A DNA stretch of 64,000 nucleotides. Source: Minisyncoccota bacterium. Its GTDB lineage: Bacteria > Patescibacteriota > Minisyncoccia > Phycocordibacterales > UBA9973. Below are positions 10,461-62,318 of the stretch, one piece after another. Each line of letters opens with the position of its first letter. The first letter of the stretch is position 1. Below the pieces are notes generated by a model. It was not told where the DNA came from. It did no database searches and worked only from the letters and a program-made list of their open reading frames with translations. The DNA is taken from contig JBAYUN010000001.1 in the NCBI GenBank assembly GCA_041675085.1, forward strand, positions 170,364-234,363. Reading direction: 5' to 3'. Made by a program: the position numbers and the translations under genes.

Positions 10461-10546
10461 AACCTAACAAAATTTAACAATTAAATACAGTATCAAAGAA
10501 CTCTACTATTTCAAGTAGAATAACATATTTTAGTATTTTGTCAACT
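10461..10546. repeat. direct repeat copy 1 (promoter/5'UTR module), weaker similarity extends to about 10395
   Basis: About 92% identical over about 85 nt to 13183..13267; contains on minus strand TTGACA-16nt-TATTCT and hairpin tctact-atttca-agtaga. Confidence 0.7.
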
Positions 10547-11110: not shown

Positions 11111-11227
11111 TTTTTATATTTTTTAATTTAAAAAATATGTCTAAGGACAATATCAAATAATCTATACTATATTTTTAGAAAAATAGCAAGTTATTTAACA
11201 GAATAATTCTCACAGAGAGAACAATCA

Positions 11228-11320
11228 AGTTCACAACATTCACAAAGCATGCCCCGCACTAAGCTTTGCTTTAGTGCTAGGGTTCACGAGCGGGCTTGAT
11301 GTTTGGATTTCAGAACTTTT
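11228..11320. repeat. repeated intergenic element, copy A
   Basis: gttcacaacattcacaaagcatgccccgcactaagctttgctttagtgctagggttcacgagcgggcttgatgtttggatttcagaactttt; near-identical to copy B. Confidence 0.7.
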
Positions 11321-12020: not shown

Positions 12021-12063
12021 ATGAGTATTATACCAAAAATACCTTAAATACAAATTTTTTAAA

Positions 12064-12183
12064 GTTCACAACATTCACAAAGCATGCCCCGCACTAAGCT
12101 TGCTTTAGTGCTAGGGTTCACGAGCGGGCTTGATGTTTTGACCCAGTCATTTGAAAGTAACTGGTTAAAATTTCAGAACTATT
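12064..12183. repeat. repeated intergenic element, copy B (with about 31-nt hairpin insertion)
   Basis: Same 76-nt core as copy A, then inserted cagtcatttgaaagtaactgg hairpin, then shared tail tttcagaact. Confidence 0.7.
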
Positions 12184-13182: not shown

Positions 13183-13267
13183 GAACCAACAACATTTAAC
13201 AATTAAATACAATATAAAAGAACTCTACTATTTCAAGTAGTATAACATATTTTAGCATTTTGTCAAC
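13183..13267. repeat. direct repeat copy 2 (promoter/5'UTR module), weaker similarity extends to about 13128
   Basis: On minus strand TTGACA-16nt-TATACT; abuts 3' end of tRNA-Trp. Confidence 0.7.
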
Positions 13268-13269
13268 TG

Positions 13270-17933: not shown

Positions 17934-19019
17934 CTATATCCCATCTTCTTTTAGTTTTTCTATATATTCTCTAGATTTTTTAGAGATTTTATTTGGCATT
18001 TTTATATTTAATTGAATCAAGATATCTCCTCTTTTACCTTTGTTCGGTACACCTTTGCCTTTCACTCTCAAGATTTCATTTATACCAACACCTTCAGGTA
18101 TAGTCACTTCGACTTTACCGTCGAGAGTCTCGAGTTCGTATTTCATACCGAGTAATGCATCCGAGAGTTTAATGTTTAAGTCTGTAGTGAGATCAAATCC
18201 TTCTCTTTTAAAAATAGGATGCCTAGAGACATTAATCTTGATATACAGATCTCCAGTAGTACCTTTTGATACAGCTTCACCCATGCCTGTCATACGGATC
18301 ATTTCGCCGTCGCGAATACCTGCGGGTACATTGATAGTGATTTCTTCTTCTTTGCGGAGGACTCCTTTACCGTGACATTTCTCACAAACTTCTTTTGGAA
18401 CTTGTCCAGATCCAGTACAAGTCTCACACATTTTTGTAGTAGAAATAGTTCCGAGTATTGTACGTTTTGCTTCGTGGATTTTACCTTGACCGTTACAAGT
18501 TTTACAAGTCTCCATCTTGGTCCCAGCTTTTGCTCCGGTCGCTTTACAAGTCTCACAACTAGAAGTCTTAGTGATCAAGACTTTGCGAGTAATGCCGAAT
18601 ACCGCCTCAGAGAAACTGATATTCATCTCAGTAGAGATATCTCGTCCGCGACGAGTTTGAGTGCGTCCTCCGCCTCCACCAAAGAAATCAGAAAAGATAT
18701 CATTCAAGTCGAATTCCATTCCACCATTTTGACCAAAGCCAGAAAAGTCGAAACCTTCAAAGCCGCCAAAACCGCCACCTTGAGGACCGTACCCTGCTCC
18801 GCCCATATTTGCATAGTTTGAGCCGAATTGATCGTATTTAGCGCGTTTTTGGTCATCAGAAAGAGTCTGGTAAGCTTCATTTACCTCTTTGAATTTCTTT
18901 TCATCTCCCTCTTTTTTGTCAGGATGATATTTATGAGCTAGTTTATAAAAAGCCTTTTTGATTTCGTCTTTTGAGGCACTTTTATTAACCCCTAATGTTT
19001 CATAATAATCTTTATTCAT
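17934..19019 (-). CDS. dnaJ: chaperone DnaJ
   Basis: J-domain [11 protein letters not shown]...HPDK, G/F-rich region, four CxxCxGxG zinc-finger repeats; start moved to MNKDYY (track ORF 13 codons longer). Confidence 0.85.
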
Positions 19020-19060
19020 AAAGGATATAATAGCAAATTTATTCAGTTTTTTCAACAAAC

Positions 19061-20563
19061 CTAAATCATAGGCTCAGCCTCGGTTTCTTTTGTTTCTTTT
19101 TGATTTGAGAGATTTTGTTTTTCTTCTTCTCTTTCTTTTCTGTCTCCTTCTTCTGTACGTCCGGCACCTTTTATCGCAGCTTTTTCTTCAGCACTACGAA
19201 TGATAGTAGACTCTTCTTCTTGGATCAATCTCTGAGCGTCACCTTTTGAGATAGCGTATTTACGACGTGAAGCGGCTAGTATCTCATCTCGATACGAAGT
19301 ATGAGTAGGAGGTAGTATACGTAAAGTCTCTGCTGAGAAAGGGTCATAACTCTCTCCGTCGATAGTCATCTTGATATAGAATTCTCCTACAGCAAGGTTA
19401 ATCATATCTTTGACTCCGAAAAGAGGATCGAATTCAGGTTTTAAACGAGTCGCGTCTTCTCCTCCTACACGGAAAGAAATAATAGATCCGACGTTACCTA
19501 GGATAGATTGATAAATCTTTGGTTGGATCTGACCTACGTATTGGTGAGCCATGGTGAGGTTCAATCCGTATTTACGAGCCTCTGATAGAATATTTTCAAA
19601 AGTTTGAGTCACGACGTTTTGGAACTCGTCGACATAAATATAAAAATCTTTACGATCTTTCTCTAGGATATGGGCGCGCTCCATACCGGCTTGCTTGATC
19701 TTGGTCAAGAACATAGATCCAAAGAAAGAAGAATTCTCTTCACCGATTTTACCCTTAGAAAGATTTATCAAAATAATTTTCTGCTCGTTCATCAAAGTAC
19801 TAATATCTATTTTATTTTCTTTTTGACCGAAAATATTGCGGAGCAGTGGGTCAGACAAGAATTGCCCGAGTTTATTCACGAGAGGGATGATCGCGTCAGT
19901 ATCAAATTTCTCAGACCAATCCGCGAATTCGATAGCGAAGAATCTTTTAACCATATCGTCTTGGATGTATTCCACGACTTTCTGACGATAATTTCTATCA
20001 GTAAGCATAGATATCATTCCACGCATCGTCGCATACGGATAGTCTAGAAGCGCCAAACAAGTAAAACGAAAAACGTGCTCCAAACGAGGAGTCCAGTTGG
20101 CACCGAATTGCTTTTGGAAAACTTCAATCAAACCTTGAGTTAATTGAAATTTGAACATAGGGTCGACGTTCGCCAGAGGATTGAAAGAAGCTGGGAAATT
20201 CACGTCAGACGGATCAATAATACAAACGTCTTCAATACGTTCTTTTGGAATATAATCTAGCATTGAGTCTATCACATCTCCGTGAGGATCGATAAGACAA
20301 AGCCCGTGCCCATAAGTGATATCTTGACGCAAGAAAAGCTCGAGGAGTTTAGTCTTACCTACTCCAGACTTCCCTATGATATACAAGTGACGACGACGGT
20401 CGACTCTCTTAAAACCAAAAATGAATTTCTTCTCTTCCAGAGATGCAACGTAATTAGTCCGCCCAATAAAAGAAACCTCCTCAGGTTTTACCTTTCCATA
20501 GACTGGAAGCTCTGGTGGTGGTGGACCGTATTTAATTATTTGAACTCGATTTGGTTTCACCAT
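19061..20563 (-). CDS. TrwB/TraD/VirD4-like (type IV coupling protein family) P-loop ATPase, 500 aa
   Basis: Walker [11 protein letters not shown] followed by CLIDPHGD (compare TrwB GATGTGKS...VIVDPNGD), Walker [10 protein letters not shown], then [13 protein letters not shown] block as in T4CP C-terminal half. Confidence 0.55.
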
Positions 20564-20707
20564 TATTATTTTGAATTTTTATAATTAAAGTATATCATAT
20601 AAAGATACTTGTCCCGTTAAATATAACAATATAATTGTATCATATTTAATAGTAAATGCGGGCAGAGTAAGATAGTCGAATATTTTATTATTTTATTTTT
20701 AACTGGG

Positions 20708-21406
20708 ATGAAGCTACATAGATTTATCGGGGAATTTGATTTATCTGGTGAAAACACAGAAATCACAAATCTTGAAAATATCAAGCAAATAAAGGGTGTT
20801 TTAAGGCTCGACGTCGGAGACTTTTTGATACTTTGCGACGGCAAAGGCACAGAAGCTAAAGTAGAAATAACAGAAATAGAAAAAACTCATATCACTACTA
20901 AAATAGTAGAAAAAACAAAAAAGGAAAATAACTCTAAAAAAGTAAGTCTATACCTAGCAATTCTTAAAAAAGAAAATTTTGAATTAGCTATACAAAAAGT
21001 CGTCGAAATCGGGGTGACTGAAATCATACCGATAATTACCGAACGAACTGTCAAAACCGGACTCAACACAGAGAGATTAAATAAAATCATCCGTGAAGCG
21101 AGTGAACAATCGGGTAGAACTATTTTGCCTATTCTGTACCCTACTTTAAAATTTATAGACGCAATACAAGACGGAAAGAAAAATGAAGGAAAGATATTTT
21201 TTGATTTTACTGAAGACAAAAATAACACGAAGAATACAAATTCAAAAAGTATTAGTATATTTATAGGTCCTGAAGGAGGGTTCACTGAAAAAGAAAATCA
21301 CATAGCTCTCGAAAATGGTTACAAAATAGAATCATTAGGAGAAAATACACTAAGAGCCGAAACCGCAGCTATCGTCGCTACTTATAAAGTAGTAAATAAT
21401 TTATGA
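20708..21406 (+). CDS. rsmE: 16S rRNA (uracil1498-N3)-methyltransferase
   Basis: MKLHRFIGEFDL...; C-terminal IGPEGGFTEKE and LGENTLRAETAAI motifs of RsmE. Confidence 0.8.
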   Translation: MKLHRFIGEFDLSGENTEITNLENIKQIKGVLRLDVGDFLILCDGKGTEAKVEITEIEKTHITTKIVEKTKKENNSKKVSLYLAILKKENFELAIQKVVEIGVTEIIPIITERTVKTGLNTERLNKIIREASEQSGRTILPILYPTLKFIDAIQDGKKNEGKIFFDFTEDKNNTKNTNSKSISIFIGPEGGFTEKENHIALENGYKIESLGENTLRAETAAIVATYKVVNNL

Positions 21407-21409
21407 AAA

Positions 21410-21703
21410 TTATTTACTTTTAGACTCAAGTTTTTCTACACGTGTAGTAAGATTATCAATTCTTCTTTCATAAGAAATACCATCGCCATTTAAAACAGTA
21501 ATACTATTTTTGAATTCTTTGTGTTGTTCGTTGTTATTTTTTATTTCTTTTAAAATTACATCTAAAACACCTTCAACTCTTTCGAAAGATTTAGCTACAG
21601 AACGCATATTGCTTTCAGAATTATTTTCAAAATTCTTTAAAGTTTCTAAAAATAATTTTTCAGTTACGTGTTTTTCAGTTGTTTTTGGAGTTATTTTCTT
21701 CAT
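21410..21703 (-). CDS. hypothetical coiled-coil protein (97 aa)
   Basis: Lys/Glu-rich, heptad-like; no domain recognised. Confidence 0.35.
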   Translation of the reverse strand: MKKITPKTTEKHVTEKLFLETLKNFENNSESNMRSVAKSFERVEGVLDVILKEIKNNNEQHKEFKNSITVLNGDGISYERRIDNLTTRVEKLESKSK

Positions 21704-21743
21704 ATATCAATTATAACAAAACCTAAAAGCTATGCAATATATC

Positions 21744-23450
21744 CTAATACACCTCACTCTGATAACATTTCTCACAATAAACTATCTCTGGTCTCTCTGG
21801 AGCATAACTTGTTTCAAATTCATTATTGCACCCTTCTTTCATGCAAGATCGATGCCAGAGTTTAAATGGATTTCTAAAAAATAGCCTTTCATTCAACCTG
21901 CAATAGAAACAACTTCTCGGTAAAGGTAAATTCATTATTTTATAAAATTTAAATTCGTCCGAAATAACTTTAAAATTTCTTTTACAGTCTATACACTCAA
22001 AAACATTATCAATAAAACTTTCATCTACATTTTCCAAAGAAATAGGGACACCTGTCGACTCAATGGTTTGCTTGCCTGTAGTTTTTTGAATATTGTATTG
22101 AAATTTATAATTTTTATCTAAAATTTCTTTTTCATTTAAAGGGAAAAAATAATTAGCTATAGTTTCATTATATCCAAAATAAGATAATTCAATAGGAAAA
22201 AATTCACCGTATCTATATACGTTTCCTTTTTTATCTACATAAGGCATCTCATTCATATGATTCTTTATCTTCTCCACCATCTCAAAATATTCTTCTTTTT
22301 TATACTGCTTGTTAAAAATACAATAACTTTTATTCTTTAAACCAACACAACCAAATACATACTTACAATTATGGCAATGCATATTGTATTCCAAAAATTG
22401 TGATTTAACTGAAAATAAACCAAATTTATTATTACTGGAATGATCTAGTACTATACCTTCATAACCAAGCTCATGCTCTCCAGAAGTTGTAATATCATAA
22501 CAATCTAAATTTTTACCTCCCTGTTGAATATATTTACAATTTTCTATCTTATCACCAATAAAACAATTTTGAGAATTTTTAGAATTACTTAATAGATCTC
22601 CTGTAACATTTAATGATTGAATTATATGAGCATATTTTCTTGGATATTTTAAAATAAATTCTTTAAATTCTTTCTTTGCTCTTTGCCTACCTTCATAAGT
22701 ATTAAGTTCATAAGTAGACAAAATTTTTTCATATTCTTCTTTAGTGTACTTTTTATTTTTAAAGCAATACTTCTCTCCTCGTAAACCTATACACATAAAA
22801 CAATCTGAACAATTACGACAATCATACAAAAAATCGGAATCTATACAAGATACACAAAAATATGAGCTTTTTAATTTATAACTATGTGAGCAATCTAAAC
22901 AATCATACATCCATTCTGAAGATTCTAAAATACAAGTACAATCTGTCATATTTTTACCGGCTAAAACCATATATCCATAAGAAACATTTTCTATATGCCA
23001 AGAACAAAAAGTCATATAACAGTTTTTAGAAAACCAAGTATCACCAGTATATTCACATTTAATGCTAGCTATGTTGTTATCGTTAACTAAAGCTATGTGA
23101 GGAATTTTATAAATTAATTTATTTAACTGAGAAAAGAAGTTTTCAGAAAAATTATAATCTTTTCCAGATTCAATTCCGTCCCATTTATCACTCCACCAAC
23201 ATTTATTACAATAAATAATTATATTAGATTCAGGAGAATACATTGATACTACGTTCATGTCACAAGAATCACATTTACGATTATATAAAGAAAAATCATT
23301 CCTCCAAGAAGCTCTTCTTTGGAACCTACATTCCGGACAAAAAGTTGGTGGTGGGACTTTTACCTTTTCATAGAAGGAAAAGTCATCACTTTCTATCGTA
23401 AAGTCATTTTGGCAATTCTGGCAGGTTTTCTTTTCGGATTTATATTCCAT
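21744..23450 (-). CDS. cysteine-rich multi-zinc-ribbon protein (568 aa), function unknown
   Basis: More than 50 Cys; N- and C-terminal modules of the form CxxC..F.I...F.FY.K....P..C..CR...R; internal repeats C..C.GL.G.KYC.FNK.Y.KEEY. Confidence 0.55.
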   Translation of the reverse strand: MEYKSEKKTCQNCQNDFTIESDDFSFYEKVKVPPPTFCPECRFQRRASWRNDFSLYNRKCDSCDMNVVSMYSPESNIIIYCNKCWWSDKWDGIESGKDYNFSENFFSQLNKLIYKIPHIALVNDNNIASIKCEYTGDTWFSKNCYMTFCSWHIENVSYGYMVLAGKNMTDCTCILESSEWMYDCLDCSHSYKLKSSYFCVSCIDSDFLYDCRNCSDCFMCIGLRGEKYCFKNKKYTKEEYEKILSTYELNTYEGRQRAKKEFKEFILKYPRKYAHIIQSLNVTGDLLSNSKNSQNCFIGDKIENCKYIQQGGKNLDCYDITTSGEHELGYEGIVLDHSSNNKFGLFSVKSQFLEYNMHCHNCKYVFGCVGLKNKSYCIFNKQYKKEEYFEMVEKIKNHMNEMPYVDKKGNVYRYGEFFPIELSYFGYNETIANYFFPLNEKEILDKNYKFQYNIQKTTGKQTIESTGVPISLENVDESFIDNVFECIDCKRNFKVISDEFKFYKIMNLPLPRSCFYCRLNERLFFRNPFKLWHRSCMKEGCNNEFETSYAPERPEIVYCEKCYQSEVY

Positions 23451-23454
23451 AATT

Positions 23455-25872
23455 CTACTCTCTATCTTCTAATAATCTACGCAAAACTTCTTCGGGAATT
23501 TCTTGTATGTTGCCTTCTGTTAATGGTGGTGGTGTGCCTGTTTTCTCTTTTACTGGTTCAGATTTTATTTCTTGCCCGCCTGCAACATTATGCATAGGAT
23601 TTCGGGCAAGTTTAATCTCTTCTTTTTTCTCTTCTCTTATTTCTTGCCTTGTTTCTATTTTTATTTCTTCTTTTATTTCTGACTTGATTGGTTCTGTTTT
23701 AATTTCAGGTTTTACTTGAGATTCTGTTTTGATTTGAGTATTTACGGGTGGATTTATTTTATTCCCGCCTGCAGAAGCTACTACTTCAGCATTTCGGGCA
23801 GGTTCTATTTTATCCCCGCCTGTAGCATTTCGGGCAGGGGTCACGATAATATCATCTACTTTTTCAGAAATCATATTCCTAAAACTATTCATTAAATCAG
23901 AACTCGCAGAGCGGTCTTTTGAATTTGTTGGATTTTCAATTTTGGCAACTTTTAAATCACTCAAAGAAATACCTTTGTTTATATCGTCATTATTTTTATC
24001 AGGAATGTTTAATCTAGGTTCGGGGATTTTTTCTTTAACTTCTTCTATATCCTTATTATGCAAGGCTATATCCAAGATTTCTTTTAGTCCTAAATTCAAA
24101 CCACTGATTTTAGGTTTTTCGGGTCTGATATGAATAGGGTTCTTTGGTATAACTTTCTCGACAATATTATTTACAAAATTTTTCTTCACAGGTGTAAAAT
24201 TATTTTTAGGAAAATCTGATTTATTTTGAGAATTAAAATTATTGTTTACAACAGGCTCAGATCTATTTTCTTTTTTTACATTAGAATTACTGTCTCCTCC
24301 AGCAAACTCTATACCTAAATCTGCAAGAGGTTTGAAAAATCTAGTCTCATCTTTTTTTAACTGATCAGGAGATACACGAATAGGTTTTATCTCGCCTGCT
24401 TTTATTTTTACAATACAGTCTTTACAGTACACAGCTCGTCCTGGTTCAGGCTTGAAAGGTACAGTAGTCATAGTGCCACAATTCGAACAAACAGTTTCAA
24501 ATTTCTCCCCGTTCGGATTGATAGCTTTGTTATTTTCGCGCGCATTACCGATATCACCGAGCGCCATACCACTCCAATCATTAATCTCTTTTTCGATGTC
24601 CTCTTTGGTACGACAATATAGCTCACGTGAGGATTCGACTACTCTTCTTTCAATATCAAGATTACCACCTTTGACCAAAGGCGCGATAGTCTTTGAAGAA
24701 AAAGGACGAGAAGTAATACCATCTATCATGAGTTTGAGATAAATCTTGTAGTTAGGTAAGTTCACGATATCCTCCGGAGTGAATTCAGGAGCAAATTCTT
24801 TTTCTAAGAAATCCGCATCGTCGGCTCCCACACGAAACACAATCATAGTCCCAACGTTACCGAAAATAGAGTCACGCATAGCACTAGACTCTTTGGTAAC
24901 CAATTGAGCTGTATATTGGTGAGCTACAGTTAGGTTCAAGCGGTATTTACGAGCCTCAGATAGAATCGAGGCAAAAGAGTCGGTGACGAAGTTTTGGAAC
25001 TCGTCGACATATAGATAAAAATCTTTACGTTCTTCTTCAGGAATACGCACACGCTCCATGGCAGCAAGCTGAATCTTGGTAATAATCATACCTCCGAGGA
25101 GCTTAGAGTTGTCTTCTCCAATACGTCCTTTGGATACGTTTACTAAGAAAATCTTGCCTTCATTCATCATGTCAAAAATATTGATAGTACTTTTTGACTG
25201 ACCAACAATATTACGAATAACAGAAGTCGAAAGGAATTGACCAACTTTGTTTTGAATCGGAGCGATAGCTTCATTACGGAATTTATCTTGCCAAGCTTCA
25301 TACTCATGAATCCAAAAAGCTTTGATCACAGGATCTTTCAAATTATTAATTATCTTTTGACGATAGTCTTTGTCTACCAACATACGAGGAATACCAAGGA
25401 GAGTAGTACCAGGAGTATCTAGCAAAGCTAGAATACAATTATTCAAAATATATTCCATACGAGCAGACCAAGCATTCGCCCAGATTTTCGTGAAAATACC
25501 CATAAGCCCCGACGCTACTAAGTGCTTGTATTTGGAATCTACAAGTTCAAGAACATTAAAACCAATATGATACTCAGTATCCGCCGGATTGAAATAAACT
25601 ACGTCTTTAAGTCTATGTTCTGGAATAGCTTGCAAAACTCCTTCGACGAGCTCACCGTGAGGGTCGACTACACACACACCTTCACCATTTAGAATATTCT
25701 GCATGATCATGTTGGACATGAGCACAGATTTACCAGTACCGGATTTTCCAAGAATATAAATATGCTGACGACGGTCGCGACGCTTGATACCAAAAAGAGT
25801 ATTCTTGTCTCTAAACGTAGAATACCCGATATAGGTCAAATCTTTATTTGGTGGCAATTGAGGCAAATCCAT
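23455..25872 (-). CDS. TrwB/VirD4-like P-loop ATPase with central zinc ribbon and long repetitive K/E/P-rich C-terminal tail (805 aa)
   Basis: YILGKSGTGKSVL...VCVVDPHGE, Walker B LYVDEFQNF, ARKYRLNLTVAHQ; zinc ribbon CSNCG...VPFKPEPGRAVYCKDC; tail with ARN-containing repeats. Confidence 0.55.
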   Translation of the reverse strand: MDLPQLPPNKDLTYIGYSTFRDKNTLFGIKRRDRRQHIYILGKSGTGKSVLMSNMIMQNILNGEGVCVVDPHGELVEGVLQAIPEHRLKDVVYFNPADTEYHIGFNVLELVDSKYKHLVASGLMGIFTKIWANAWSARMEYILNNCILALLDTPGTTLLGIPRMLVDKDYRQKIINNLKDPVIKAFWIHEYEAWQDKFRNEAIAPIQNKVGQFLSTSVIRNIVGQSKSTINIFDMMNEGKIFLVNVSKGRIGEDNSKLLGGMIITKIQLAAMERVRIPEEERKDFYLYVDEFQNFVTDSFASILSEARKYRLNLTVAHQYTAQLVTKESSAMRDSIFGNVGTMIVFRVGADDADFLEKEFAPEFTPEDIVNLPNYKIYLKLMIDGITSRPFSSKTIAPLVKGGNLDIERRVVESSRELYCRTKEDIEKEINDWSGMALGDIGNARENNKAINPNGEKFETVCSNCGTMTTVPFKPEPGRAVYCKDCIVKIKAGEIKPIRVSPDQLKKDETRFFKPLADLGIEFAGGDSNSNVKKENRSEPVVNNNFNSQNKSDFPKNNFTPVKKNFVNNIVEKVIPKNPIHIRPEKPKISGLNLGLKEILDIALHNKDIEEVKEKIPEPRLNIPDKNNDDINKGISLSDLKVAKIENPTNSKDRSASSDLMNSFRNMISEKVDDIIVTPARNATGGDKIEPARNAEVVASAGGNKINPPVNTQIKTESQVKPEIKTEPIKSEIKEEIKIETRQEIREEKKEEIKLARNPMHNVAGGQEIKSEPVKEKTGTPPPLTEGNIQEIPEEVLRRLLEDRE

Positions 25873-25944
25873 ACTCTCAATTATAGCAAAAAACCCATTG
25901 CATTTCTACAAGGGTTTTTTGTTAATTACTTTTCTAAAAATTTT

Positions 25945-25973
25945 GCCCTGTCAATCGCGACTGACGGGGTGAA
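25945..25973. repeat. GC-rich palindromic REP-like element, copy 1
   Basis: gccctgtcaatcgcgactgacggggtgaa just 3' of dnaK stop. Confidence 0.5.
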
Positions 25974-27881: not shown

Positions 27882-28020
27882 ATTTTTTATTTTAATTAAT
27901 TTATAATAATTTAAATTTATAATTTTTATAAAAAAAATTTTTCTAGAGCCTTATCTTTTATGACTTAACGACGAAAAATTTCTTTTTGTAAAAATTTAAA
28001 ATAATCTATATTTTACTTGT

Positions 28021-28036
28021 TTTTCGCGACCGCGAA
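28021..28036. promoter_or_regulatory. palindrome TTTCGCG-ACC-GCGAAA overlapping -35 region of a TTGTATAAT promoter
   Basis: tttcgcgaccgcgaaa followed 7 nt later by ttgtataat (extended -10) upstream of the PaaX-like gene; divergent from dnaK. Confidence 0.35.
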
Positions 28037-28121
28037 ATACTTGTATAATCTAGTATATATGATAAGATATATCTATGTCAACCCCACTTCGCTTAAGCTT
28101 CGCGGGGCAAAGCAAAAATAT

Positions 28122-28637
28122 ATGCAAAATCAAGACCATTCCAAAAAAATCCTTAAAAAACTAGCAGAAAAGAGAGCTATTTCTATAGAGTCATTAAAAG
28201 ACAAAGAAGACAAGAAAGAGAAATATGCCCTCTCTAGAAGCCTTAAAAACCTCGTAAACAGCGGTTTTGCTCGTATTCATGACTCAGGCAACCAAGACTA
28301 CATAAGCCTCACCAAAGAAGGCAAAAAGAAAGTGCACAGCCTTAACCTCGAGAACGAAAATACCCTAGTGAATACATCTTGGGACGGCTATTGGAGAATG
28401 GTACTTTTAGATCTACCAGAAACCAGAAAAAACGAACGTGAATCTCTACGCTATTTATTAAAAAAAGCAGGGTTTGTATGTCTGAAGAATTCAGTCTGGA
28501 TTTCTCCCCTACCATACGAATATTTATTTGAAAATATTAAAAAAGATTTAGGCTTAACTACTGAGATGATAATCCTAACCACAAACAAAATAGACGCAGA
28601 AACTCAAAAAACTATTTTTGAGAATTTTAAGAATTAA
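28122..28637 (+). CDS. PaaX-family-like transcriptional regulator (short form)
   Basis: Start moved to MQNQDHSKK because track N-terminus overlaps the promoter; wHTH YALSRSLKNLVNSGFARI..ISLTKEGKK then WDGYWRMVLLDLPE...GFVCLKNSVWISP (compare E. coli PaaX WDGKWLLLL...GFGALAPSLMASP). Confidence 0.55.
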   Translation: MQNQDHSKKILKKLAEKRAISIESLKDKEDKKEKYALSRSLKNLVNSGFARIHDSGNQDYISLTKEGKKKVHSLNLENENTLVNTSWDGYWRMVLLDLPETRKNERESLRYLLKKAGFVCLKNSVWISPLPYEYLFENIKKDLGLTTEMIILTTNKIDAETQKTIFENFKN

Positions 28638-44772: not shown

Positions 44773-44893
44773 AAAATAATATTTCTAAGTTAATTATAAG
44801 TTAATAATTTAATAAGTTTGTATTAAATAAAAAAAGCCCAAAGGCTTAAAATTCAACATATTTATAATAGCACACTTTTTGAAAATAACAAAC

Positions 44894-44920
44894 CATGTCA
44901 GTCGCGACTAACGTGGTAAA
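44894..44920. repeat. REP-like palindrome, copy 3 (degenerate)
   Basis: catgtcagtcgcgactaacgtggtaaa. Confidence 0.45.
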
Positions 44921-44980: not shown

Positions 44981-45649
44981 TTAAATTTCAAACAACAATC
45001 TTACATCAATAGGATCCTGGATTGAAATTTTTTTCACAATAAGTGAAGCAAGATTATTTTGAGAATTTAATATATTCCAATAATAATCAAAAACTTCTTC
45101 TATACTTTTTTGTAAAGGAACCAAGTATGGTTCACCTTTAAACGCAGGCAAAGGATTACCACTACCACTGTAAGTATTAAGGCAATAACCATATCCATCT
45201 ATGTCTTTTAAATTCCAAAAAGCAAACAATGGTTTTTTACCATGATCACTTTTTCTAATTATAGCTAGTTGATTTTTTAAAGTGCTATTTTCAGAAATAA
45301 TAGTGAGCCCAGCAATTCTGGGCGTATAATTTGGAGCATCTGGTTTATAAGACCATTCGTTTTTAAAATCAATAATTAGATTTTTCCCAAGTAAAGTTTT
45401 TGTATGAGTCCCGTTGCTAACAGCAAAGATATTCTCTATTGAAGGCATTGCATATGTTTCTTGTCGCATAGCCTCATAGACTACCTCATCTGCATTCGTC
45501 TTCATCATCCAAAAAATTTGAACAACAAATTTATTTATAACTCCAATTATTATACCATCTCCTGGATAAGGATTCTGACCTAGTTTGATTGCATTTGTCG
45601 CGGCTGTTTCCGCAGCTTGTAATTTTTGAAAATTTATATCATTTGTCAT
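44981..45649 (-). CDS. hypothetical protein (222 aa)
   Basis: No recognised domain. Confidence 0.45.
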   Translation of the reverse strand: MTNDINFQKLQAAETAATNAIKLGQNPYPGDGIIIGVINKFVVQIFWMMKTNADEVVYEAMRQETYAMPSIENIFAVSNGTHTKTLLGKNLIIDFKNEWSYKPDAPNYTPRIAGLTIISENSTLKNQLAIIRKSDHGKKPLFAFWNLKDIDGYGYCLNTYSGSGNPLPAFKGEPYLVPLQKSIEEVFDYYWNILNSQNNLASLIVKKISIQDPIDVRLLFEI

Positions 45650-45795
45650 GATGAAAAATTTAGTATGTTAAAGAAATATATTCAGATATACAGTACCACA
45701 TTTTACCAAAAAAAGCAAAGCTTCACAAACTTAAATACTAAAGTAACTGAAAAGATGCAAAAAAAATAAAAATATGTTATTTTATATATTGTAAA

Positions 45796-45857
45796 TGCGT
45801 CGGTGGTAGAGCTTGCCCCGTCAGTCGCGACTGACAGGGTGAATCAATTACAACAGA
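45796..45857 (+). other. duplicated 5' half of tRNA-Tyr (acceptor/D-arm and anticodon-stem 5' strand) with REP-like palindrome replacing the D-loop
   Basis: gcgtcggtggtagag + cttgccccgtcagtcgcgactgacagggtgaa + tcaattacaacagac; the same two 15-mers occur in intact tRNA-Tyr 22 nt downstream, separated there by tgg. Confidence 0.5.
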
Positions 45858-45879
45858 CATGTTTAGTCAAATTTAATAC

Positions 45880-45962
45880 GCGTCGGTGGTAGAGTGGTCA
45901 ATTACAACAGACTGTAAATCTGTCGCCTTCGGGCTACGAAGGTTCGAATCCTTCCCGGCGCA
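45880..45962 (+). tRNA. tRNA-Tyr (anticodon GTA)
   Basis: gcgtcgg..acaga-cTGTAaa-tctgt, long variable arm cgccttcgggcta, T-arm gaaggttcgaatccttc, acceptor ccggcgc. Confidence 0.85.
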
Positions 45963-45968
45963 CAACAA

Positions 45969-45990
45969 AATCCCGAAAGGGATTTTTTGC
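45969..45990 (+). terminator. terminator hairpin after tRNA-Tyr
   Basis: aaaatcccgaaagggatttttt. Confidence 0.55.
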
Positions 45991-46173
45991 GTCGGAGCGA
46001 GCCAACTGCTTGGCTCGTGAGAAGGATTCGAAAAGCTTTTCTGTATTTTTAAAAATCTTTGATTTTAAAAAATTAGAAAAGGTATACTGCTCCTGTAAGG
46101 AGAGAAATTCCTTCCCTGTATAATTACTTTTTTTCAACTTGCTGTTTAAATATAAAATAATATAATAAATCAT

Positions 46174-50676: not shown

Positions 50677-50728
50677 TATGGGGTGAATTGAACAACATCC
50701 TGAACGCTAAATTGAAACAAATATTCTC
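50677..50728. repeat. 52-bp direct repeat, left copy, flanking cassette gene
   Basis: tatggggtgaattgaacaacatcctgaacgctaaattgaaacaaatattctc. Confidence 0.65.
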
Positions 50729-50757: not shown

Positions 50758-51174
50758 TTGAAAATGAAAAATTGGTTCAAATCCAGTAAGACGGTAAAAA
50801 ATCCCGCTCAAGCTGGTGACACGGCACTTGCCTTCTATTATGAAGAAATTGCCAAAAAATTAGGTAACAACAAACAAGGGGCGCCTCATTTTGAGTATGA
50901 GATCCATACGCAAGAACGGGCACCGCTTGATAGTTCTACCGCACAGTTTGCAGTAACGTTATGGGGAGTATCACAAGGATTCAAAATTATAGAATCCAAA
51001 AACGAACCCTCTCTGAAGAAAGCACTACAAAAAGTCGGATTCTCTCATGATGAAATAGTACTCTATTCGCACTGTATCGTAGAATCAGGCACGTTCGCTA
51101 GTGGATATCAGAAAAACGATGTGTATCGTCTGCATTATCAGGATTACAGCGAAATCGTGACAGGTTACTTCTAA
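50758..51174 (+). CDS. hypothetical protein (138 aa) with locally elevated GC
   Basis: ORF sits exactly between the two direct repeats; GC visibly higher than surroundings. Confidence 0.5.
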   Translation: MKMKNWFKSSKTVKNPAQAGDTALAFYYEEIAKKLGNNKQGAPHFEYEIHTQERAPLDSSTAQFAVTLWGVSQGFKIIESKNEPSLKKALQKVGFSHDEIVLYSHCIVESGTFASGYQKNDVYRLHYQDYSEIVTGYF

Positions 51175-51190
51175 ACCTTTAATTATGAAG

Positions 51191-51241
51191 TATGGGTGAA
51201 TTGAATAACATCCTTAACGCTAAATTGAAACAAATATTCTC
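51191..51241. repeat. direct repeat, right copy
   Basis: tatgggtgaattgaataacatccttaacgctaaattgaaacaaatattctc (about 94% identical to left copy). Confidence 0.65.
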
Positions 51242-51307: not shown

Positions 51308-51796
51308 ATGAATACTAGCACCAGATTACTATGTATTGCCTCAATACTAACAATTATCTATTTTGTGGTCTTGTATGACCTTTTACAGGTTCCATACGAT
51401 AGAGACATAAATTATCTTGATCAAATTTCTGTAAAGCACTTCGAAACAGAAAAAAATATAGGCATAGTAAAAACAAAATTTTTTGGAGATATTAAAACCG
51501 TTAAGGGAAAATACTCGTTTATGGTAAGTTCCATAGTAACTAGACCAGAAGATGGGAGTATGTGGATACTCCATTCTCTGAAATGGTTTGAAATACTATT
51601 AACCGTGGGATTAATTTGTCTGTTATTACTTGAAAGAAAAGGAGAAGATTTCACGCCTGCTTTTCTAATTTTATGTTTAACAATAACTTTTATTTCATGC
51701 TTATCTTCATCATCATTAAAACCAGATTTTGGTTTTAATGAAATTCTTTTGCTAATATTATTATTAATAAATTTTACTATTAGTAGAAAAAAATAA
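51308..51796 (+). CDS. hypothetical polytopic membrane protein
   Basis: Multiple hydrophobic helices. Confidence 0.4.
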   Translation: MNTSTRLLCIASILTIIYFVVLYDLLQVPYDRDINYLDQISVKHFETEKNIGIVKTKFFGDIKTVKGKYSFMVSSIVTRPEDGSMWILHSLKWFEILLTVGLICLLLLERKGEDFTPAFLILCLTITFISCLSSSSLKPDFGFNEILLLILLLINFTISRKK

Positions 51797-56475: not shown

Positions 56476-56559
56476 TGGGCAAGTGGCGGAATTGGTATAC
56501 GCGTTAGTCTTAGGAACTAATGCCGCAAGGCTTGAGGGTTCGAGTCCCTCCTTGCCCAC
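56476..56559 (+). tRNA. tRNA-Leu (anticodon TAG)
   Basis: tgggcaa..ttagt-cTTAGga-actaa, long variable arm, gagggttcgagtccctc, ttgccca. Confidence 0.85.
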
Positions 56560-56624: not shown

Positions 56625-56650
56625 CCCCTAGGTCGCGACTCAGGGCTTGA
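56625..56650. repeat. REP-like palindrome, copy 4 (shortened)
   Basis: cccctaggtcgcgactcagggcttga. Confidence 0.4.
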
Positions 56651-56681: not shown

Positions 56682-57461
56682 ATGAAAAATGTAAACAACA
56701 ATTTAATATTTGCCTTAGGAATCTTAGCTGTTGTGGCTTTCAATATTCTATTCTTATCCCCTACTACTACAAATGCTTATGTAACTCAAGGAGCTTATAA
56801 CACAACTGGAGCATACACTTATTGTGACGGATGTGGAGGAGTTAATAGTAATGCAAACAATAACAGCAACTCTACAATAGCAACTCCAGTCTTGTATTCA
56901 CTATCCCCTACAAACACTACAGTCAATGCAAATACAAAAACTGTGACTATCTTGGGTACAGGCTTCCGCCCAGACTCTATAGCTAGATGGGGCAGCTTCG
57001 ATCGCCCTACTTCATACGTAAACTCAAGAAAACTTATCATGGAGCTAAACGAAGGAGACTTAAAGGCAAAAGGTCAATACTTGGTAACAGTAGTAAACCC
57101 TAGTCCAGACGGTGGAAAGTTCTCAAACTCAAAAGTTTTCACTGTAAATAATACTACAACAGGAGCAGTAGCAGGAGCGAGCACAAAAAACACAACAAAG
57201 AAAGTATCTACAAGTAATACAACAGTAAAGACAGTCGGAGTAGAACTTGATACAGATTCCTCTTTAAACGGCTCTACAGGCTCAATAGACGGTGACAATG
57301 ATAATCTATCAGCAAATGCATCAAGTAGTAATTTCAACTTCATGCCGAGCACTATATTAGGATGGTTAGTACTATTTATCCTAATCTATCTATCAATACT
57401 ATTATTTAGAAAACTTTGGGTCACAGAAGACGACAAAAACAAGCCCTTAAAGCACGCATAA
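56682..57461 (+). CDS. surface protein with IPT/TIG-like domain and C-terminal TM anchor
   Basis: Signal peptide; PVLYSLSPTNTTVNANTKTVTILGTGF...LVTVVNPSPDGGKFS; Thr/Asn-rich linker; C-terminal TM ILGWLVLFILIYLSILLF. Confidence 0.5.
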   Translation: MKNVNNNLIFALGILAVVAFNILFLSPTTTNAYVTQGAYNTTGAYTYCDGCGGVNSNANNNSNSTIATPVLYSLSPTNTTVNANTKTVTILGTGFRPDSIARWGSFDRPTSYVNSRKLIMELNEGDLKAKGQYLVTVVNPSPDGGKFSNSKVFTVNNTTTGAVAGASTKNTTKKVSTSNTTVKTVGVELDTDSSLNGSTGSIDGDNDNLSANASSSNFNFMPSTILGWLVLFILIYLSILLFRKLWVTEDDKNKPLKHA

Positions 57462-59267: not shown

Positions 59268-59981
59268 TTATATCGAGTTATTTTCTCCTAATACAGATTG
59301 ACTAGAATTTGTATTAGAAGTTGAACCATTATTGGGTGGCAAACTAGGGTCAGTATTTGTACTAGGAGTACTATTTACAGAAGGATTTATTATAGGATCA
59401 AAACCAGAAGTAGTATTGGTATTTGTCGTATTAGGAGGAGGTATAAAAGGATCTGAAGTCTCAATAGGATCTAGATTGTCGTCAATGGGTGTAACTCCTA
59501 TCGGATCAACCTCTACAGGATCAAATTGAGTGCCTGTACCAGTTGTTGTACCTGTAGTAGTTCCAGTACCTGTTCCCGCTCCTGAACCCGTCCCTGTATT
59601 TGTCCCCGTACCAGGAGGATTGAAAGGAATCGTAGGATTGTAATCATTTAGTTGTACAGTCCCCGCTTCTGGATCAATCCCCGTGATATTTAAAGTATTT
59701 AAAACTAAGTTTAGAATACCCCAAACACCCATCATAACAGTCAAACCAATAACTCCATAAAGCATATGATTCTTGCCATTAGTGCGCTCTGTTTCATTAT
59801 CAGCATTTGTTAAGAAAACAAAAACTCCATAAAGAAAATAAGCTATACCAATAGCAAAAAGCAATCGAATCAAAGGATTCACTATCACAGAATTAAAATT
59901 ACCTAAAAAGGAATTAAAATCTGCGTATGCTATATTGGGTAAAAATATTGAAAATAAATCCATAATTTTTATTGTGGACAA
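59268..59981 (-). CDS. TrbC/VirB2-like pilin paralog 6 with Gly/Thr/Pro-rich C-terminal tail
   Basis: Shared two-helix core AYFLYGVFVFL...ERTNGKNHMLYGVIGLTVMMGVWGILN; tail GTGTNTGTGSGAGTGTGTTTG. Confidence 0.45.
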   Translation of the reverse strand: MSTIKIMDLFSIFLPNIAYADFNSFLGNFNSVIVNPLIRLLFAIGIAYFLYGVFVFLTNADNETERTNGKNHMLYGVIGLTVMMGVWGILNLVLNTLNITGIDPEAGTVQLNDYNPTIPFNPPGTGTNTGTGSGAGTGTGTTTGTTTGTGTQFDPVEVDPIGVTPIDDNLDPIETSDPFIPPPNTTNTNTTSGFDPIINPSVNSTPSTNTDPSLPPNNGSTSNTNSSQSVLGENNSI

Positions 59982-60388
59982 TCTACACCAGGAGATTCAA
60001 TACAAGGAATAGAGATTTCAGTATCAGCAACATCTAATCCAACGAAGTTTTTGATGAAGTTAACCAATCCCCAAACAGATACGATAACCATCAACGCAAT
60101 AAGACCGTTGATCATAGCACCCCTTCCTTCAGTCTTTGCATCTTCATCACGAGCAATAGCATAGTGAATAACACCCCAGATAAAGTAGATAACTGCAAGA
60201 GTTATTAATACTGGAATAACATTATTTAAAATTGTAGCAATTCTACAAAGTAGAACGTTGAAAGCGTTCGGGTCTGGAATAGCGAAACAACCAGTTGCTT
60301 GCGCAGAAGCTAGTTGAGGAGCAAGAAAAGTAGCGAACATAAACACAGAACTAACAATCAAACCTAAACTCATTAATTTTTTCTTCAT
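59969..60388 (-). CDS. TrbC/VirB2-like pilin paralog 5
   Basis: Signal peptide ...LASAQA; core AVIYFIWGVIHYAIARDEDAKTEGRGAMINGLIALMVIVSVWGLVNF. Confidence 0.5.
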   Translation of the reverse strand: MKKKLMSLGLIVSSVFMFATFLAPQLASAQATGCFAIPDPNAFNVLLCRIATILNNVIPVLITLAVIYFIWGVIHYAIARDEDAKTEGRGAMINGLIALMVIVSVWGLVNFIKNFVGLDVADTEISIPCIESPGVDCPQ

Positions 60389-60530
60389 ATTTATATTTTT
60401 ATTTATTATTCTGTATTTTGTAATACAGAAAGTTATTTTTAATAATTTATAATTTCTATTTGATTCGACCTTTTTATATTCCTAAAGATTAGGTTAATTA
60501 AATTATATCATACCTATATGTGAAATAAAG

Positions 60531-60920
60531 CTAATTTGTGAATACCTGTGGAATAATACTTATATTTAATCCAAAAGTTCCCCCGAGAATAGCTACCAAC
60601 CCCCAAACAGATACCATCACAGTCAGAGCAATAATCCCCCAAACCATGAATTGCTTGCCCTTTTCACGTTTACCTTCGTCGGCTTCGTTTAGGACGTATT
60701 GCATGACTCCATACAGAAATAGTACGAGAGCTAAAGCAAAAATAAAAGGTACTACAGCCGTATTAATAATACAGATCACATAGTCTACTAGATTATTAAA
60801 TTTAGGGTTTGCAGACAGATTACAACCACCTCCTGTACCTTGCGCATTAGCTAAATAGGGACTGAAAACAATCAGTGTAAAGAAGAGTACAAGGAATAAA
60901 TTTTTAAAAATATTTTTCAT
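60531..60920 (-). CDS. TrbC/VirB2-like pilin paralog 4
   Basis: Signal peptide ...LANAQG; YVICIINTAVVPFIFALALVLFLYGVMQYVLNEADEGKREKGKQFMVWGIIALTVMVSVWGLV (compare VirB2 VNNICTFILGPFGQSLAVLGIVAIGISWMFG). Confidence 0.5.
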   Translation of the reverse strand: MKNIFKNLFLVLFFTLIVFSPYLANAQGTGGGCNLSANPKFNNLVDYVICIINTAVVPFIFALALVLFLYGVMQYVLNEADEGKREKGKQFMVWGIIALTVMVSVWGLVAILGGTFGLNISIIPQVFTN

Positions 60921-60923
60921 AAA

Positions 60924-61454
60924 TTAATTTGGTGTTACTGAGGGTATTATCCTAGTATTGATACCAAAGGTCCCGCCAAGGAGATTTACCAACCCCCAAA
61001 CAGATACCATCACAGTCAGAGCAATAATCCCCCAAACCATGAATTGCTTTCCCTTTTCACGTTTACCTTCGTCGGCTTCGTTTAGGACGTATTGCATGAC
61101 TCCGTACACAAACATGACTAATGCTAGAGAGAATATCAAAGGAACTACTGACAGGTTTAAAATACAACTCGTATAGCTTATAACATCTTGGATTTTAGGA
61201 TTAGTAGCTAAAGAACAACCTACACCACCTCCTCCAGACCCAGACCCACTGCCTCCACCAGCACCTCCTCCTCCATTACCACTCCCGTTATCTCCTCCAT
61301 AATCACAACCTTGTGCTAACCACTGAGCACTACCTACTTCTAAATCAGCACATTGAGCTTGTGCAATATTTGGAGTTGTAGTTAGAAAGACTGAAAAAGA
61401 AAGGACGAACAACATTAACAAAGGTAACAAATTTTTTTTAAATATATTCTTCAT
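60924..61454 (-). CDS. TrbC/VirB2-like pilin paralog 3 with Gly-rich insert
   Basis: Core about 120 nt near-identical to paralog 4; N-domain GGDNGSGNGGGGAGGGSGSGSGGGGVGC with 4 Cys. Confidence 0.5.
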   Translation of the reverse strand: MKNIFKKNLLPLLMLFVLSFSVFLTTTPNIAQAQCADLEVGSAQWLAQGCDYGGDNGSGNGGGGAGGGSGSGSGGGGVGCSLATNPKIQDVISYTSCILNLSVVPLIFSLALVMFVYGVMQYVLNEADEGKREKGKQFMVWGIIALTVMVSVWGLVNLLGGTFGINTRIIPSVTPN

Positions 61455-61466
61455 AAATTTTAATTT

Positions 61467-61868
61467 TTATAATGATAAAACTGTCTCTGATATTAATTGT
61501 GCAATAGCCCAAGAACCCAAGAGTATAGCAGCTCCGATAACGGTATAAAGTAAAGCGTCCTTGGCTTCTTTGATCTTATCAGGCTTGCCTATAGCAGTCA
61601 CAAAAAGGAAACCAGAATATATAATAGCTATAGCTACTAGAGGGATACCTATTTTGATAATACCTTCGAGAATAGTCTTTACAAAATCTTGTACATTATT
61701 TGCCTTAATAGGATTATCAATAGTAACAGCAGCTGTAGGAGTATTAGGTCCAGATCCAGTTGATTGAGCTAAAGAAATAACAGGAGAGAAAACAATCAAA
61801 CCAAAAACCAAAACTAATAATATGCTTGCTAGATAATTCTTTTTAAAATTCATATTAATATTATACAT
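61467..61868 (-). CDS. TrbC/VirB2-like pilin paralog 2
   Basis: Signal peptide ...ISLAQS; IGIPLVAIAIIYSGFLFVTAIGKPDKIKEAKDALLYTVIGAAILLGSWAI. Confidence 0.5.
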   Translation of the reverse strand: MYNINMNFKKNYLASILLVLVFGLIVFSPVISLAQSTGSGPNTPTAAVTIDNPIKANNVQDFVKTILEGIIKIGIPLVAIAIIYSGFLFVTAIGKPDKIKEAKDALLYTVIGAAILLGSWAIAQLISETVLSL

Positions 61869-61871
61869 TAT

Positions 61872-62318
61872 TTAAAATCCAATCCAAGCACCATCATAAC
61901 CCAACACAGATAAAATAGTACTAATTATCAACCAACAAGCGGCTATGATGATAAGCCCCTTGGCTGTATTCCAAAATATACTTTTTGCTTTTTCTCTTTG
62001 GGAAGACTGACCTCCAGAAAAAAGAAGCAAGAATCCCGCATACGCGAAAGCAATAGCTGCCAGGGGTAAAGCAAGCACAGTAAGAATAAAATTGATAATT
62101 TTATTTATCATAAATAAAAAATAATTGAAATCGCAAGGATTAATAATTGCCCCATCTTTATCTTTGTCATTACCACAAGGAACTAACCCACCCAAAGAAC
62201 GACTAGTTGATGAAGTAGATTCGTCTTTTAGAGTACTTTGAGCAAATGCTAAAAATGGATTCATTAATAAAAATCCTACTACATACAAAGACACAAAAGT
62301 TTTTAAAAAAGTTTTCAT
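61872..62318 (-). CDS. TrbC/VirB2-like pilin paralog 1
   Basis: Signal peptide ...LAFAQS; Cys pair PCGNDKDKDGAIINPCDF; core LALPLAAIAFAYAGFLLLFSGGQSSQREKAKSIFWNTAKGLIIIAACWLI. Confidence 0.5.
   Translation of the reverse strand: MKTFLKTFVSLYVVGFLLMNPFLAFAQSTLKDESTSSTSRSLGGLVPCGNDKDKDGAIINPCDFNYFLFMINKIINFILTVLALPLAAIAFAYAGFLLLFSGGQSSQREKAKSIFWNTAKGLIIIAACWLIISTILSVLGYDGAWIGF

Follow-up and report, generated by a model that had tools for sequence, protein, structure and literature searches.

The window, by which we mean the whole 64,000-nt stretch of DNA analysed here, derives from a Patescibacteria (CPR) genome labelled Candidatus Paceibacterota. It has a GC content of 33.8%, not the 30% given in an earlier note on this DNA, and carries the four short GC-rich palindromic sequences to which that note had drawn attention. 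All four were confirmed in sequence and position (Table 1). They had been described as intergenic, which is correct with respect to protein-coding genes, all four lying outside them; copy 2, however, sits inside a 5' fragment of tRNA-Tyr.

Table 1. Palindrome copies and associated tRNA-Tyr features, in window coordinates
Feature	Position	Strand	Sequence and context
Copy 1	25942..25973		32-nt unit tTTGCCCTGTCAATCGCGACTGACGGGGTGAA, between dnaK stop and stem-loop with T run
Copy 2	45812..45843		32-nt unit CTTGCCCCGTCAGTCGCGACTGACAGGGTGAA, replaces TGG of the D-loop of the tRNA-Tyr fragment
Copy 3	44890..44917		28-nt indel, ACCACGTTAGTCGCGACTGACATGGTTT on the minus strand
Copy 4	56625..56645		Decayed and shortened, CCCCTAGGTCGCGACTCAGGG; abuts -35 TTGACA in the promoter of ORF 56682-57461
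Duplicated 5' piece of tRNA-Tyr with spacer	45797..45879	+	83 nt in all; by direct reading
Intact tRNA-Tyr (GTA)	45880..45963	+	ARAGORN; Rfam tRNA, 60.3 bits; empty-site reference for copy 2

The dnaK stop near copy 1 is at 25980 on the minus strand, and a stem-loop with a T run at 25890-25922 is read by eye as the dnaK terminator, the terminator scan having made no call there. Copy 3, which consists of a 26-nt imperfect palindrome plus TT, lies directly upstream of a -35-like TTGTTA in the typA promoter and between two terminator-like hairpins. One of these hairpins was called by the scan; otherwise, the stem-loops with T runs beside copies 1 and 3 were recognised by eye only.

Several other features of the window deserve mention. 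Genes for two VirD4/TrwB-like ATPases, of which one has a CxxC zinc finger, are interleaved with dnaK and dnaJ at 17934-25872. A PaaX-like (Cas2-like domain) winged-helix gene at 28017-28637 lies between grpE and dnaK, the usual place of hrcA, and in its promoter region (28015-28036) an inverted repeat, TTTTCGCGACCGCGAAA, precedes a TATAAT -10-like hexamer as a putative operator. An array of paralogous T4SS-pilin-like genes occupies 59268-62318. There are also longer direct repeats: 80-nt repeats at 11227-11307 and 12062-12141 (98-100% identical, 835 nt apart), each with a hairpin, lie upstream of two minus-strand genes and have no Rfam match at the gathering threshold; an 81-nt repeat at 10466-10546 and 13188-13268 (94% identical) carries a promoter (TTGACA/TATACT) together with a leader hairpin, and one of its copies comes directly after tRNA-Trp; and a 48-nt repeat at 50681-50728 and 51194-51241 (96% identical), starting GGGTGAATTGAA, precedes the adjacent ORFs 50758-51174 and 51308-51796. 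Across the window only tRNAs reach the gathering threshold of Rfam 15, and nothing credible at E<=1 was obtained around copies 2 and 3.

The palindromes form one family

The pattern GTCRRTCGCGACTRAC matches the window three times (at 25950, 44897 and 45820), against 0.03 matches expected from shuffles. When its two covarying positions were freed (GTYNNTCGCGANNRAC), the same three sites were returned against an expectation of 0.22, and a repeat search of the window likewise grouped the three strong copies into one family, D13. Copy 4 folds no better than its shuffles, and it is accepted as a member only because a sister strain has a fuller copy, TTGCCCTGTCAGTCGCAACAGATAGGG, at the same place. 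The tally is three strong copies and one decayed copy, i.e. four per 64 kb or about one per 16 kb, a density that extrapolates to only tens of copies per genome.

Two of the copies had been noted to share a flanking GGGTGAA. They do, and the likeness goes further, since copies 1 and 2 share the full 32-nt unit CTTGCCCCGTCAGTCGCGACTGACGGGGTGAA. This common unit, CTTGCCCC...GGGGTGAA, is asymmetric and idiosyncratic, and copy 1 of the sister strain differs from copy 2 by 1 nt. Both facts point to copying from one master sequence rather than to convergent hairpins. An assembly artefact was rejected, since assemblies made independently (ENA, Logan, NCBI and JGI) contain these sequences too.

Presence, absence and decay among relatives

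Relatives were traced by way of proteins that cluster with TypA or with the TrwB-like protein; a search with ribosomal protein S9 returned none. By typA nucleotide identity to the window, the closest is the sister strain L134 (97.1%), followed by L137, L135/136 and L140-142 (about 92%) and by L143/144 (90%). The variation in presence that the earlier note had proposed to look for was found at all four sites.

At the site of copy 3 the window and L137 are filled with the identical 28 nt (...GGCTATTTATTT-ACCACGTTAGTCGCGACTGACATGGTTT-GTTATTTTC...), whereas the sister L134, L140-142, L135/136 and L143/144 are empty (...GGCTATTTATTT|GTTATTTTCAAAAAGTG..., the empty genomes reading ...TATTTATTT-GT(T/A)ATTTTTC...). 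The site is thus a base-precise 28-nt indel with a TT(T) duplication, and L134, which has no palindrome there, keeps identical flanks and both flanking terminators. Because the filled state occurs in two non-sister lineages and the empty state in four, this distribution needs several losses, allelic recombination or site-specific re-insertion; the indels could also be precise deletions of an old insert.

At the other solo sites the palindrome itself has changed. Copy 1 of the window carries two substitutions that break pairing, while the sister L145/146 has the perfect palindrome TTCACCCCGTCAGTCGCGACTGACGGGGCAAG, and in L151, a more distant relative, dnaK is followed by a terminator with no palindrome. 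Copy 4 is shortened in the window; its counterpart in the sister L138/139 is a 24-nt version with three substitutions, and the outgroup L120 has the same promoter without a palindrome. Judged from these sequences, copies 1 and 4 are decaying, and the decay of copy 4 has taken a different course in each of the two strains.

As a separate observation at the copy 4 locus, the sister strain (L138/L139:60-260, orthologous to window position 56559) has an insert of about 190 nt directly after tRNA-Leu(tag). Both of its ends are marked by a 20-nt direct repeat, CGAGTCCCTCCTTGCCCACA, which corresponds to the 3' end of the tRNA. The insert looks like the scar of an integrative element.

Copy 2 and the tRNA-Tyr fragment

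Copy 2 has its own internal reference. Positions 1-15 of tRNA-Tyr are repeated at 45797-45811 and positions 19-33 at 45844-45858, so that 15 nt on each side of the palindrome are identical to the intact gene, and the GTAG adjoining copy 2 is part of the tRNA D-stem. The interrupted fragment lies between the promoter and the intact tRNA-Tyr, whose start is 37 nt further on. A 21-nt spacer (45859-45879) follows the fragment; it starts with ATGTTT and may be the relic of a lost ORF.

Fragment and palindrome are present in the window, L134 and the outgroup L120, and absent from L137, L140 and L143/144, where the entire 83 nt (fragment, copy 2 and spacer) are missing. In L137 and L143/144 the promoter end, TTGTAAAT, was read directly as joined straight to the intact tRNA-Tyr; for L140 the same junction was deduced from overlapping BLAST coordinates. 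Where present, copy 2 is invariant, being 100% identical in L134 and identical in L120. Indeed, copy 2 and the fragment match L120 at 64/64 positions, despite a clpB identity of just 75.7% and a divergent spacer next to them. Such a match could stem from selection, from concerted evolution, or from a recently shared cassette that lost an ORF independently in the two lineages.

The surroundings of tRNA-Tyr are themselves variable. Past its terminator, at 45990-46045, lies a possible second pseudo-tRNA-Tyr remnant, GCGTCGG plus the hairpin GAGCCAACTGCTTGGCTC plus GAAGGATTCGAA, of which L137 has a longer version with extra hairpins. On the other side, window 44981-45750 compared with L134:160-1906 is a gene-replacement hot spot, where the IMP-cyclohydrolase-like gene encodes 222 aa in the window and 261 aa in the 97% sister strain; a 261-aa homologue (P0004 in the protein search) is 44% identical to the window protein, and the sister strain has an additional 254-aa ORF. 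In L120 and L143 the tRNA-Tyr module has yet other neighbourhoods.

Unit structure and distribution in Patescibacteria

The earlier note would have taken a want of further copies as evidence of coincidental hairpins; further copies were found in many related and unrelated Patescibacteria genomes. In a scan of one genome per species, the 18-mer YGTCARTCGCGACTRACR occurs in at least 117 stretches, and exact matches include at least 44 loci from at least 24 Patescibacteria-labelled MAGs, with up to six contigs per MAG among the matches listed. The labels comprise Moranbacteria, Uhrbacteria, Magasanikbacteria, Paceibacterota, Peregrinibacteria, Saccharibacteria and Patescibacteria. A metagenome scan with a lineage-specific 27-mer gave 0 matches. 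Nine viral-contig matches of the 16-mer are treated as chance, all being without the extended palindrome and mostly of high GC.

In an in-register alignment of fifty copies, the four base pairs beyond the 18-mer used for searching are formed in 46-47 of the 50 (AU/GC/CG/UA). Pairing stops abruptly past 26 nt, the next two positions being unpaired, and shuffled and slid controls all fall far short of this, which makes the unit a palindrome of 26 nt. Together with the variant cores found later (GTCGCTCGCGAGCGAC, GTCACTCGCGAGTGAC and GTCGTTCGCGAACGAC), this gives the formula N4-CGTC-N2-TCGCGA-N2-GACG-N4, in which an N position changes only together with its pairing partner, so that the element can always fold as a hairpin or cruciform. 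Such fixed blocks with covarying positions have the look of a protein-recognised hairpin. The T..G / C..A asymmetry showed no significant strand polarity relative to transcription (9 versus 3), because some of the loci are orthologous.

The identical 18-mer also occurs outside CPR: in Pseudoxanthomonas (L016, L033, L053, L058, L062, L101) as the tip of a 38-nt GTAG...CTAC REP, in Akkermansia (L024, L030, L046) within a 26-nt palindrome, and in Bacteroidales (L015, L019, L047, L108, L110) near ATGCA(A/C)AAA... motifs that are possibly ORF starts.

Most copies across the MAGs are intergenic, none was seen in coding DNA, and their positions relative to genes are varied, namely after stops, before -35 boxes and inside pseudo-tRNAs, with no theme shared among the neighbouring genes. 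Arrays or doublets occur (L092, L055, L067, L081), and palindromes of about 70 nt in MAG JAHISE01 have the core at their tip. Just one ORF has a copy placed neatly on either side; it is in L099 and reads as rmlC, a dTDP-4-dehydrorhamnose epimerase by its sequence. A REPtron-like arrangement was accordingly rejected, this ORF being no mobilising gene.

These data bear on three rival readings. First, ordinary intrinsic terminators or chance hairpins would be GC-rich stem-loops in AT-rich spacers, as these are, and many Moranbacteria copies are indeed flanked by T runs. Nevertheless, an expectation of 0.03 speaks against chance, and an identical 18-mer in at least 24 MAGs is unexpected for terminators. 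The window copies themselves have no adjoining T run and none was called by the terminator scan; canonical terminators are adjacent instead, and at copy 3 both are retained where the palindrome is missing. We regard this reading as scarcely credible.

Second, the palindrome could be the operator of a dimeric transcription factor with a regulon, e.g. for heat shock. In its favour are a core of 16-18 bp that is perfectly palindromic and has invariant blocks, the -35 hexamers abutted by copies 3 and 4 and by the palindrome of L044, and the proximity of dnaK, clpB and a DnaJ-domain gene to copies 1 and 2. Copy 1, however, follows dnaK and is outside its promoter, and copy 2 is downstream of the tRNA-Tyr promoter; a heat-shock operator was rejected on this mismatch between palindrome and promoter positions. 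Moreover, the outer stem covaries without its sequence being conserved, whole sites look like one-step 28-nt insertions and are absent at the same promoters in close relatives, and the neighbouring genes across MAGs (rmlC, for example) have nothing in common. An operator is thus very unlikely.

Third, the half-sites might be DNA uptake sequences in inverted pairs, serving a competence or pilus machinery of these bacteria, which scavenge DNA. In Neisseria, inverted pairs of such sequences double as terminators. The intergenic location, often after genes, the inverted half-sites, and the T4SS-pilin array and VirD4-like ATPases of the window would fit, and allelic spread of copy 3 between lineages is what biased uptake with recombination would yield. 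Yet about one copy per 16 kb is far below the density of known uptake sequences, and coding DNA was seen to have none; one core shared by very divergent CPR classes is unlike lineage-specific dialects; and covariation in the stem is not expected. We therefore hold uptake pairs to be highly improbable.

A tRNA-Trp cassette with a GIY-YIG gene

At 5 GTDB and 8 JGI metagenome loci a 5' fragment of tRNA-Trp carries the palindrome in its anticodon loop (GGTCTC-ACCCGTCAGTCGCGACTGACGGGT-GTCTCCAAAACC). The fragment with its palindrome is followed by an ORF of about 83 aa with a Pfam GIY-YIG match and, 3-13 nt later, by an intact tRNA-Trp. In the fragment the 24-nt palindrome is flanked by a duplicated GTCTC, of which the adjoining intact tRNA-Trp has a single one; from the sequences, this looks like an insertion seen against an internal reference. 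Across 11 distinct orthologous loci the cassette hairpin is 97.5% paired, and 5 of its 11 pairs show compensatory changes. At two additional JGI loci, L161 and L163, the nuclease gene is kept and the tRNA fragment lost, with two palindromes just upstream of the ORF, and L020 is the only tRNA-Trp locus with palindromes on both sides of the GIY-YIG-tRNA pair.

The tRNA-Trp loci are L020, L029, L063, L115, L103 and L152-L163. More generally, a tRNA follows no further than 120 nt downstream at 23 of 80 GIY-YIG loci. GIY-YIG genes also precede other tRNAs, some with the 5' fragment of that tRNA and unrelated GC-rich hairpins (tRNA-Thr at L115:1840-2700; tRNA-Glu at L109:6200-6800), and some CPR cassettes have a hairpin-riddled pseudo-tRNA after the intact tRNA.

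The arrangement raises a further possibility, that the palindrome is the cis partner of the approximately 83-aa GIY-YIG nucleases. These would recognise the CGTC/TCGCGA hairpin, or its cruciform, within a tRNA-gene-targeting cassette made of tRNA 5' fragment plus hairpin, nuclease gene and restored tRNA; the solo hairpins would have been scattered by the same enzyme, and copy 2 would be a relic. If true, this would be a GIY-YIG counterpart of RAYT-REP. By its layout copy 2 does look like the relic of a fragment-hairpin-GIY-YIG cassette in tRNA-Tyr, the ATGTTT of its spacer being as in ORF starts. More distant GIY-YIG genes are mostly without palindromes, and a local HMM search over six-frame ORFs found no GIY-YIG gene in the window. 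We consider the partnership, as a whole, distinctly unlikely. Even so, the recurrent order of tRNA fragment, hairpin, GIY-YIG gene and tRNA offers a starting point for tracing what may be a tRNA-gene-associated mobile cassette of a new kind.

The cassette also bears on the reading of the palindrome as a selected structural hairpin in RNA or ssDNA, i.e. a 5' or 3' stabiliser of mRNA or tRNA precursor, a processing site or a protein-bound regulatory stem-loop, retained wherever it is of use and spread by recombination and not by transposition. The paired and compensated stem of the cassette hairpin argues for it, as do the palindromes retained upstream of the ORF in L161 and L163 and the invariance of copy 2 and its fragment in L120 amid diverged surroundings. 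Nevertheless, copies 1 and 4 show decay, the 97% sister strain does without copy 3 between identical flanks, the positions relative to genes are heterogeneous, and processes at the DNA level can also keep a palindrome symmetric. We consider this reading unlikely, though it deserves to be kept in mind; it also overlaps in part with a mobile origin, as mobile REPs can be co-opted.

Discussion

We propose that the four sequences belong to one family of 26-32 bp GC-rich palindromic, non-autonomous, REP-like mobile insertion elements that is widespread in Patescibacteria, and we regard this as probably correct. Among the options listed in the earlier note, it retains the mobile miniature palindrome and the REP-like element; a terminator role is not supported, nor, from the window ORFs scanned, is a RAYT partner. 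The behaviour of the family is to insert in AT-rich spacers and in non-essential leftovers of tRNA genes, with base-precise presence and absence, after which most copies decay.

How the element moves can be outlined only conditionally. A protein encoded elsewhere in the genome would recognise the hairpin, with the fixed CGTC/TCGCGA bases as its probable contacts, and would copy it into new sites, and copies may be lost again through slippage between short flanking repeats. The fixed core across genomes labelled Moranbacteria, Uhrbacteria, Magasanikbacteria, Paceibacteria and Saccharibacteria implies that an activity able to recognise the hairpin is conserved. Forty window ORFs scanned against Pfam (10 next to the copies and 30 others; about 16-42 kb of the window was covered by precomputed Pfam calls instead) gave no transposase, recombinase or GIY-YIG match. 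The window copies would be passengers, of which the two abutting -35 boxes could alter promoter strength.

Having favoured a mobile element, we would note what counts against it. No transposition event was seen. The target duplications are inconsistent (5 nt GTCTC in the tRNA-Trp fragment, 2-3 nt of T at copy 3, none at the tRNA-Tyr D-loop), which is atypical for a single transposase, and four copies per 64 kb is a low density for a REP family. Furthermore, the conserved cassette hairpin and the 64/64 identity of copy 2 suggest that at least some copies are selected rather than selfish. The cassette-linked copies look selected; the solo copies look neutral.

Few known genomes are as small and compact as those of CPR/Patescibacteria, and in the literature searched we found no report of palindromic repeats or REP-like elements for Patescibacteria, nor the 16-mer. 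Since the elements mark recent change near tRNA genes, promoters and a gene-replacement hot spot, they would be useful strain-level markers in uncultured bacteria.

Comparison with known systems

There is a close likeness to the GTAG REP/REPIN elements of Proteobacteria, which are mobilised by RAYT and are also short (20-40 bp) imperfect GC-rich palindromes, extragenic and multi-copy, in some cases arranged in arrays or as parts of larger hairpins, with gain and loss at strain level and with fixed bases in a covarying stem; the GTAG-REP of Pseudoxanthomonas even has the same 18-mer at its tip (GTAGGAGCGACGTCAGTCGCGACTGACGTCGCTCCTAC). The present family differs in its Patescibacteria host, in having no gene consistently flanked by copies, and in its much lower density, REP/REPIN copies typically numbering hundreds per genome. 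No GTAG tag was found in the flanks of the 50 aligned copies. The RAYT/Y1 transposase that the earlier note had suggested as an associate was sought in the window ORFs scanned, which cover 64 kb of a genome of at least 529 kb, and no Y1_Tnp match was obtained.

The GC clusters of yeast and fungal mitochondria offer an analogy only, being unrelated in sequence and residing in a eukaryotic organelle. They too are GC-rich palindromic inserts in an AT-rich compact genome, with short target duplications and presence or absence among strains, and they insert in non-essential gene parts and encode no transposase. A MITE (50-500 bp, terminal inverted repeats, duplications of fixed length) was rejected, as the unit here is a single palindrome of 26-32 nt with duplications of 5, 2-3 or 0 nt.

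The CGTC-tagged REPs (Di Nocera et al. 2013, PMC3733652), which include Rickettsia RPE-4/6 and Neisseria dRS3, resemble the family in containing CGTC, in occurring in small AT-rich genomes too, and in that they can sit inside genes or RNA genes; that paper reports no dedicated transposase for them. Their architecture is different: an unpaired CGTC at one end, an 8-9 bp stem starting AT, a 4-5 nt loop and a CCA tail (PMC3733652), whereas in all copies of the present family CGTC is paired with GACG inside the stem, which reaches 11-13 bp around a CGCG/TCGCGA centre, and there is no tail.

Finally, the cassette recalls SegB of phage T4, a free-standing GIY-YIG homing endonuclease in a tRNA gene cluster (PMC2330249). 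In both, a small GIY-YIG gene has tRNA genes as neighbours, and duplication or rearrangement has affected the tRNA region. Unlike SegB, the CPR proteins are predicted nucleases of about 83 aa with the catalytic domain only, and they are chromosomal and come with a conserved palindrome that occupies the anticodon loop of a tRNA fragment.
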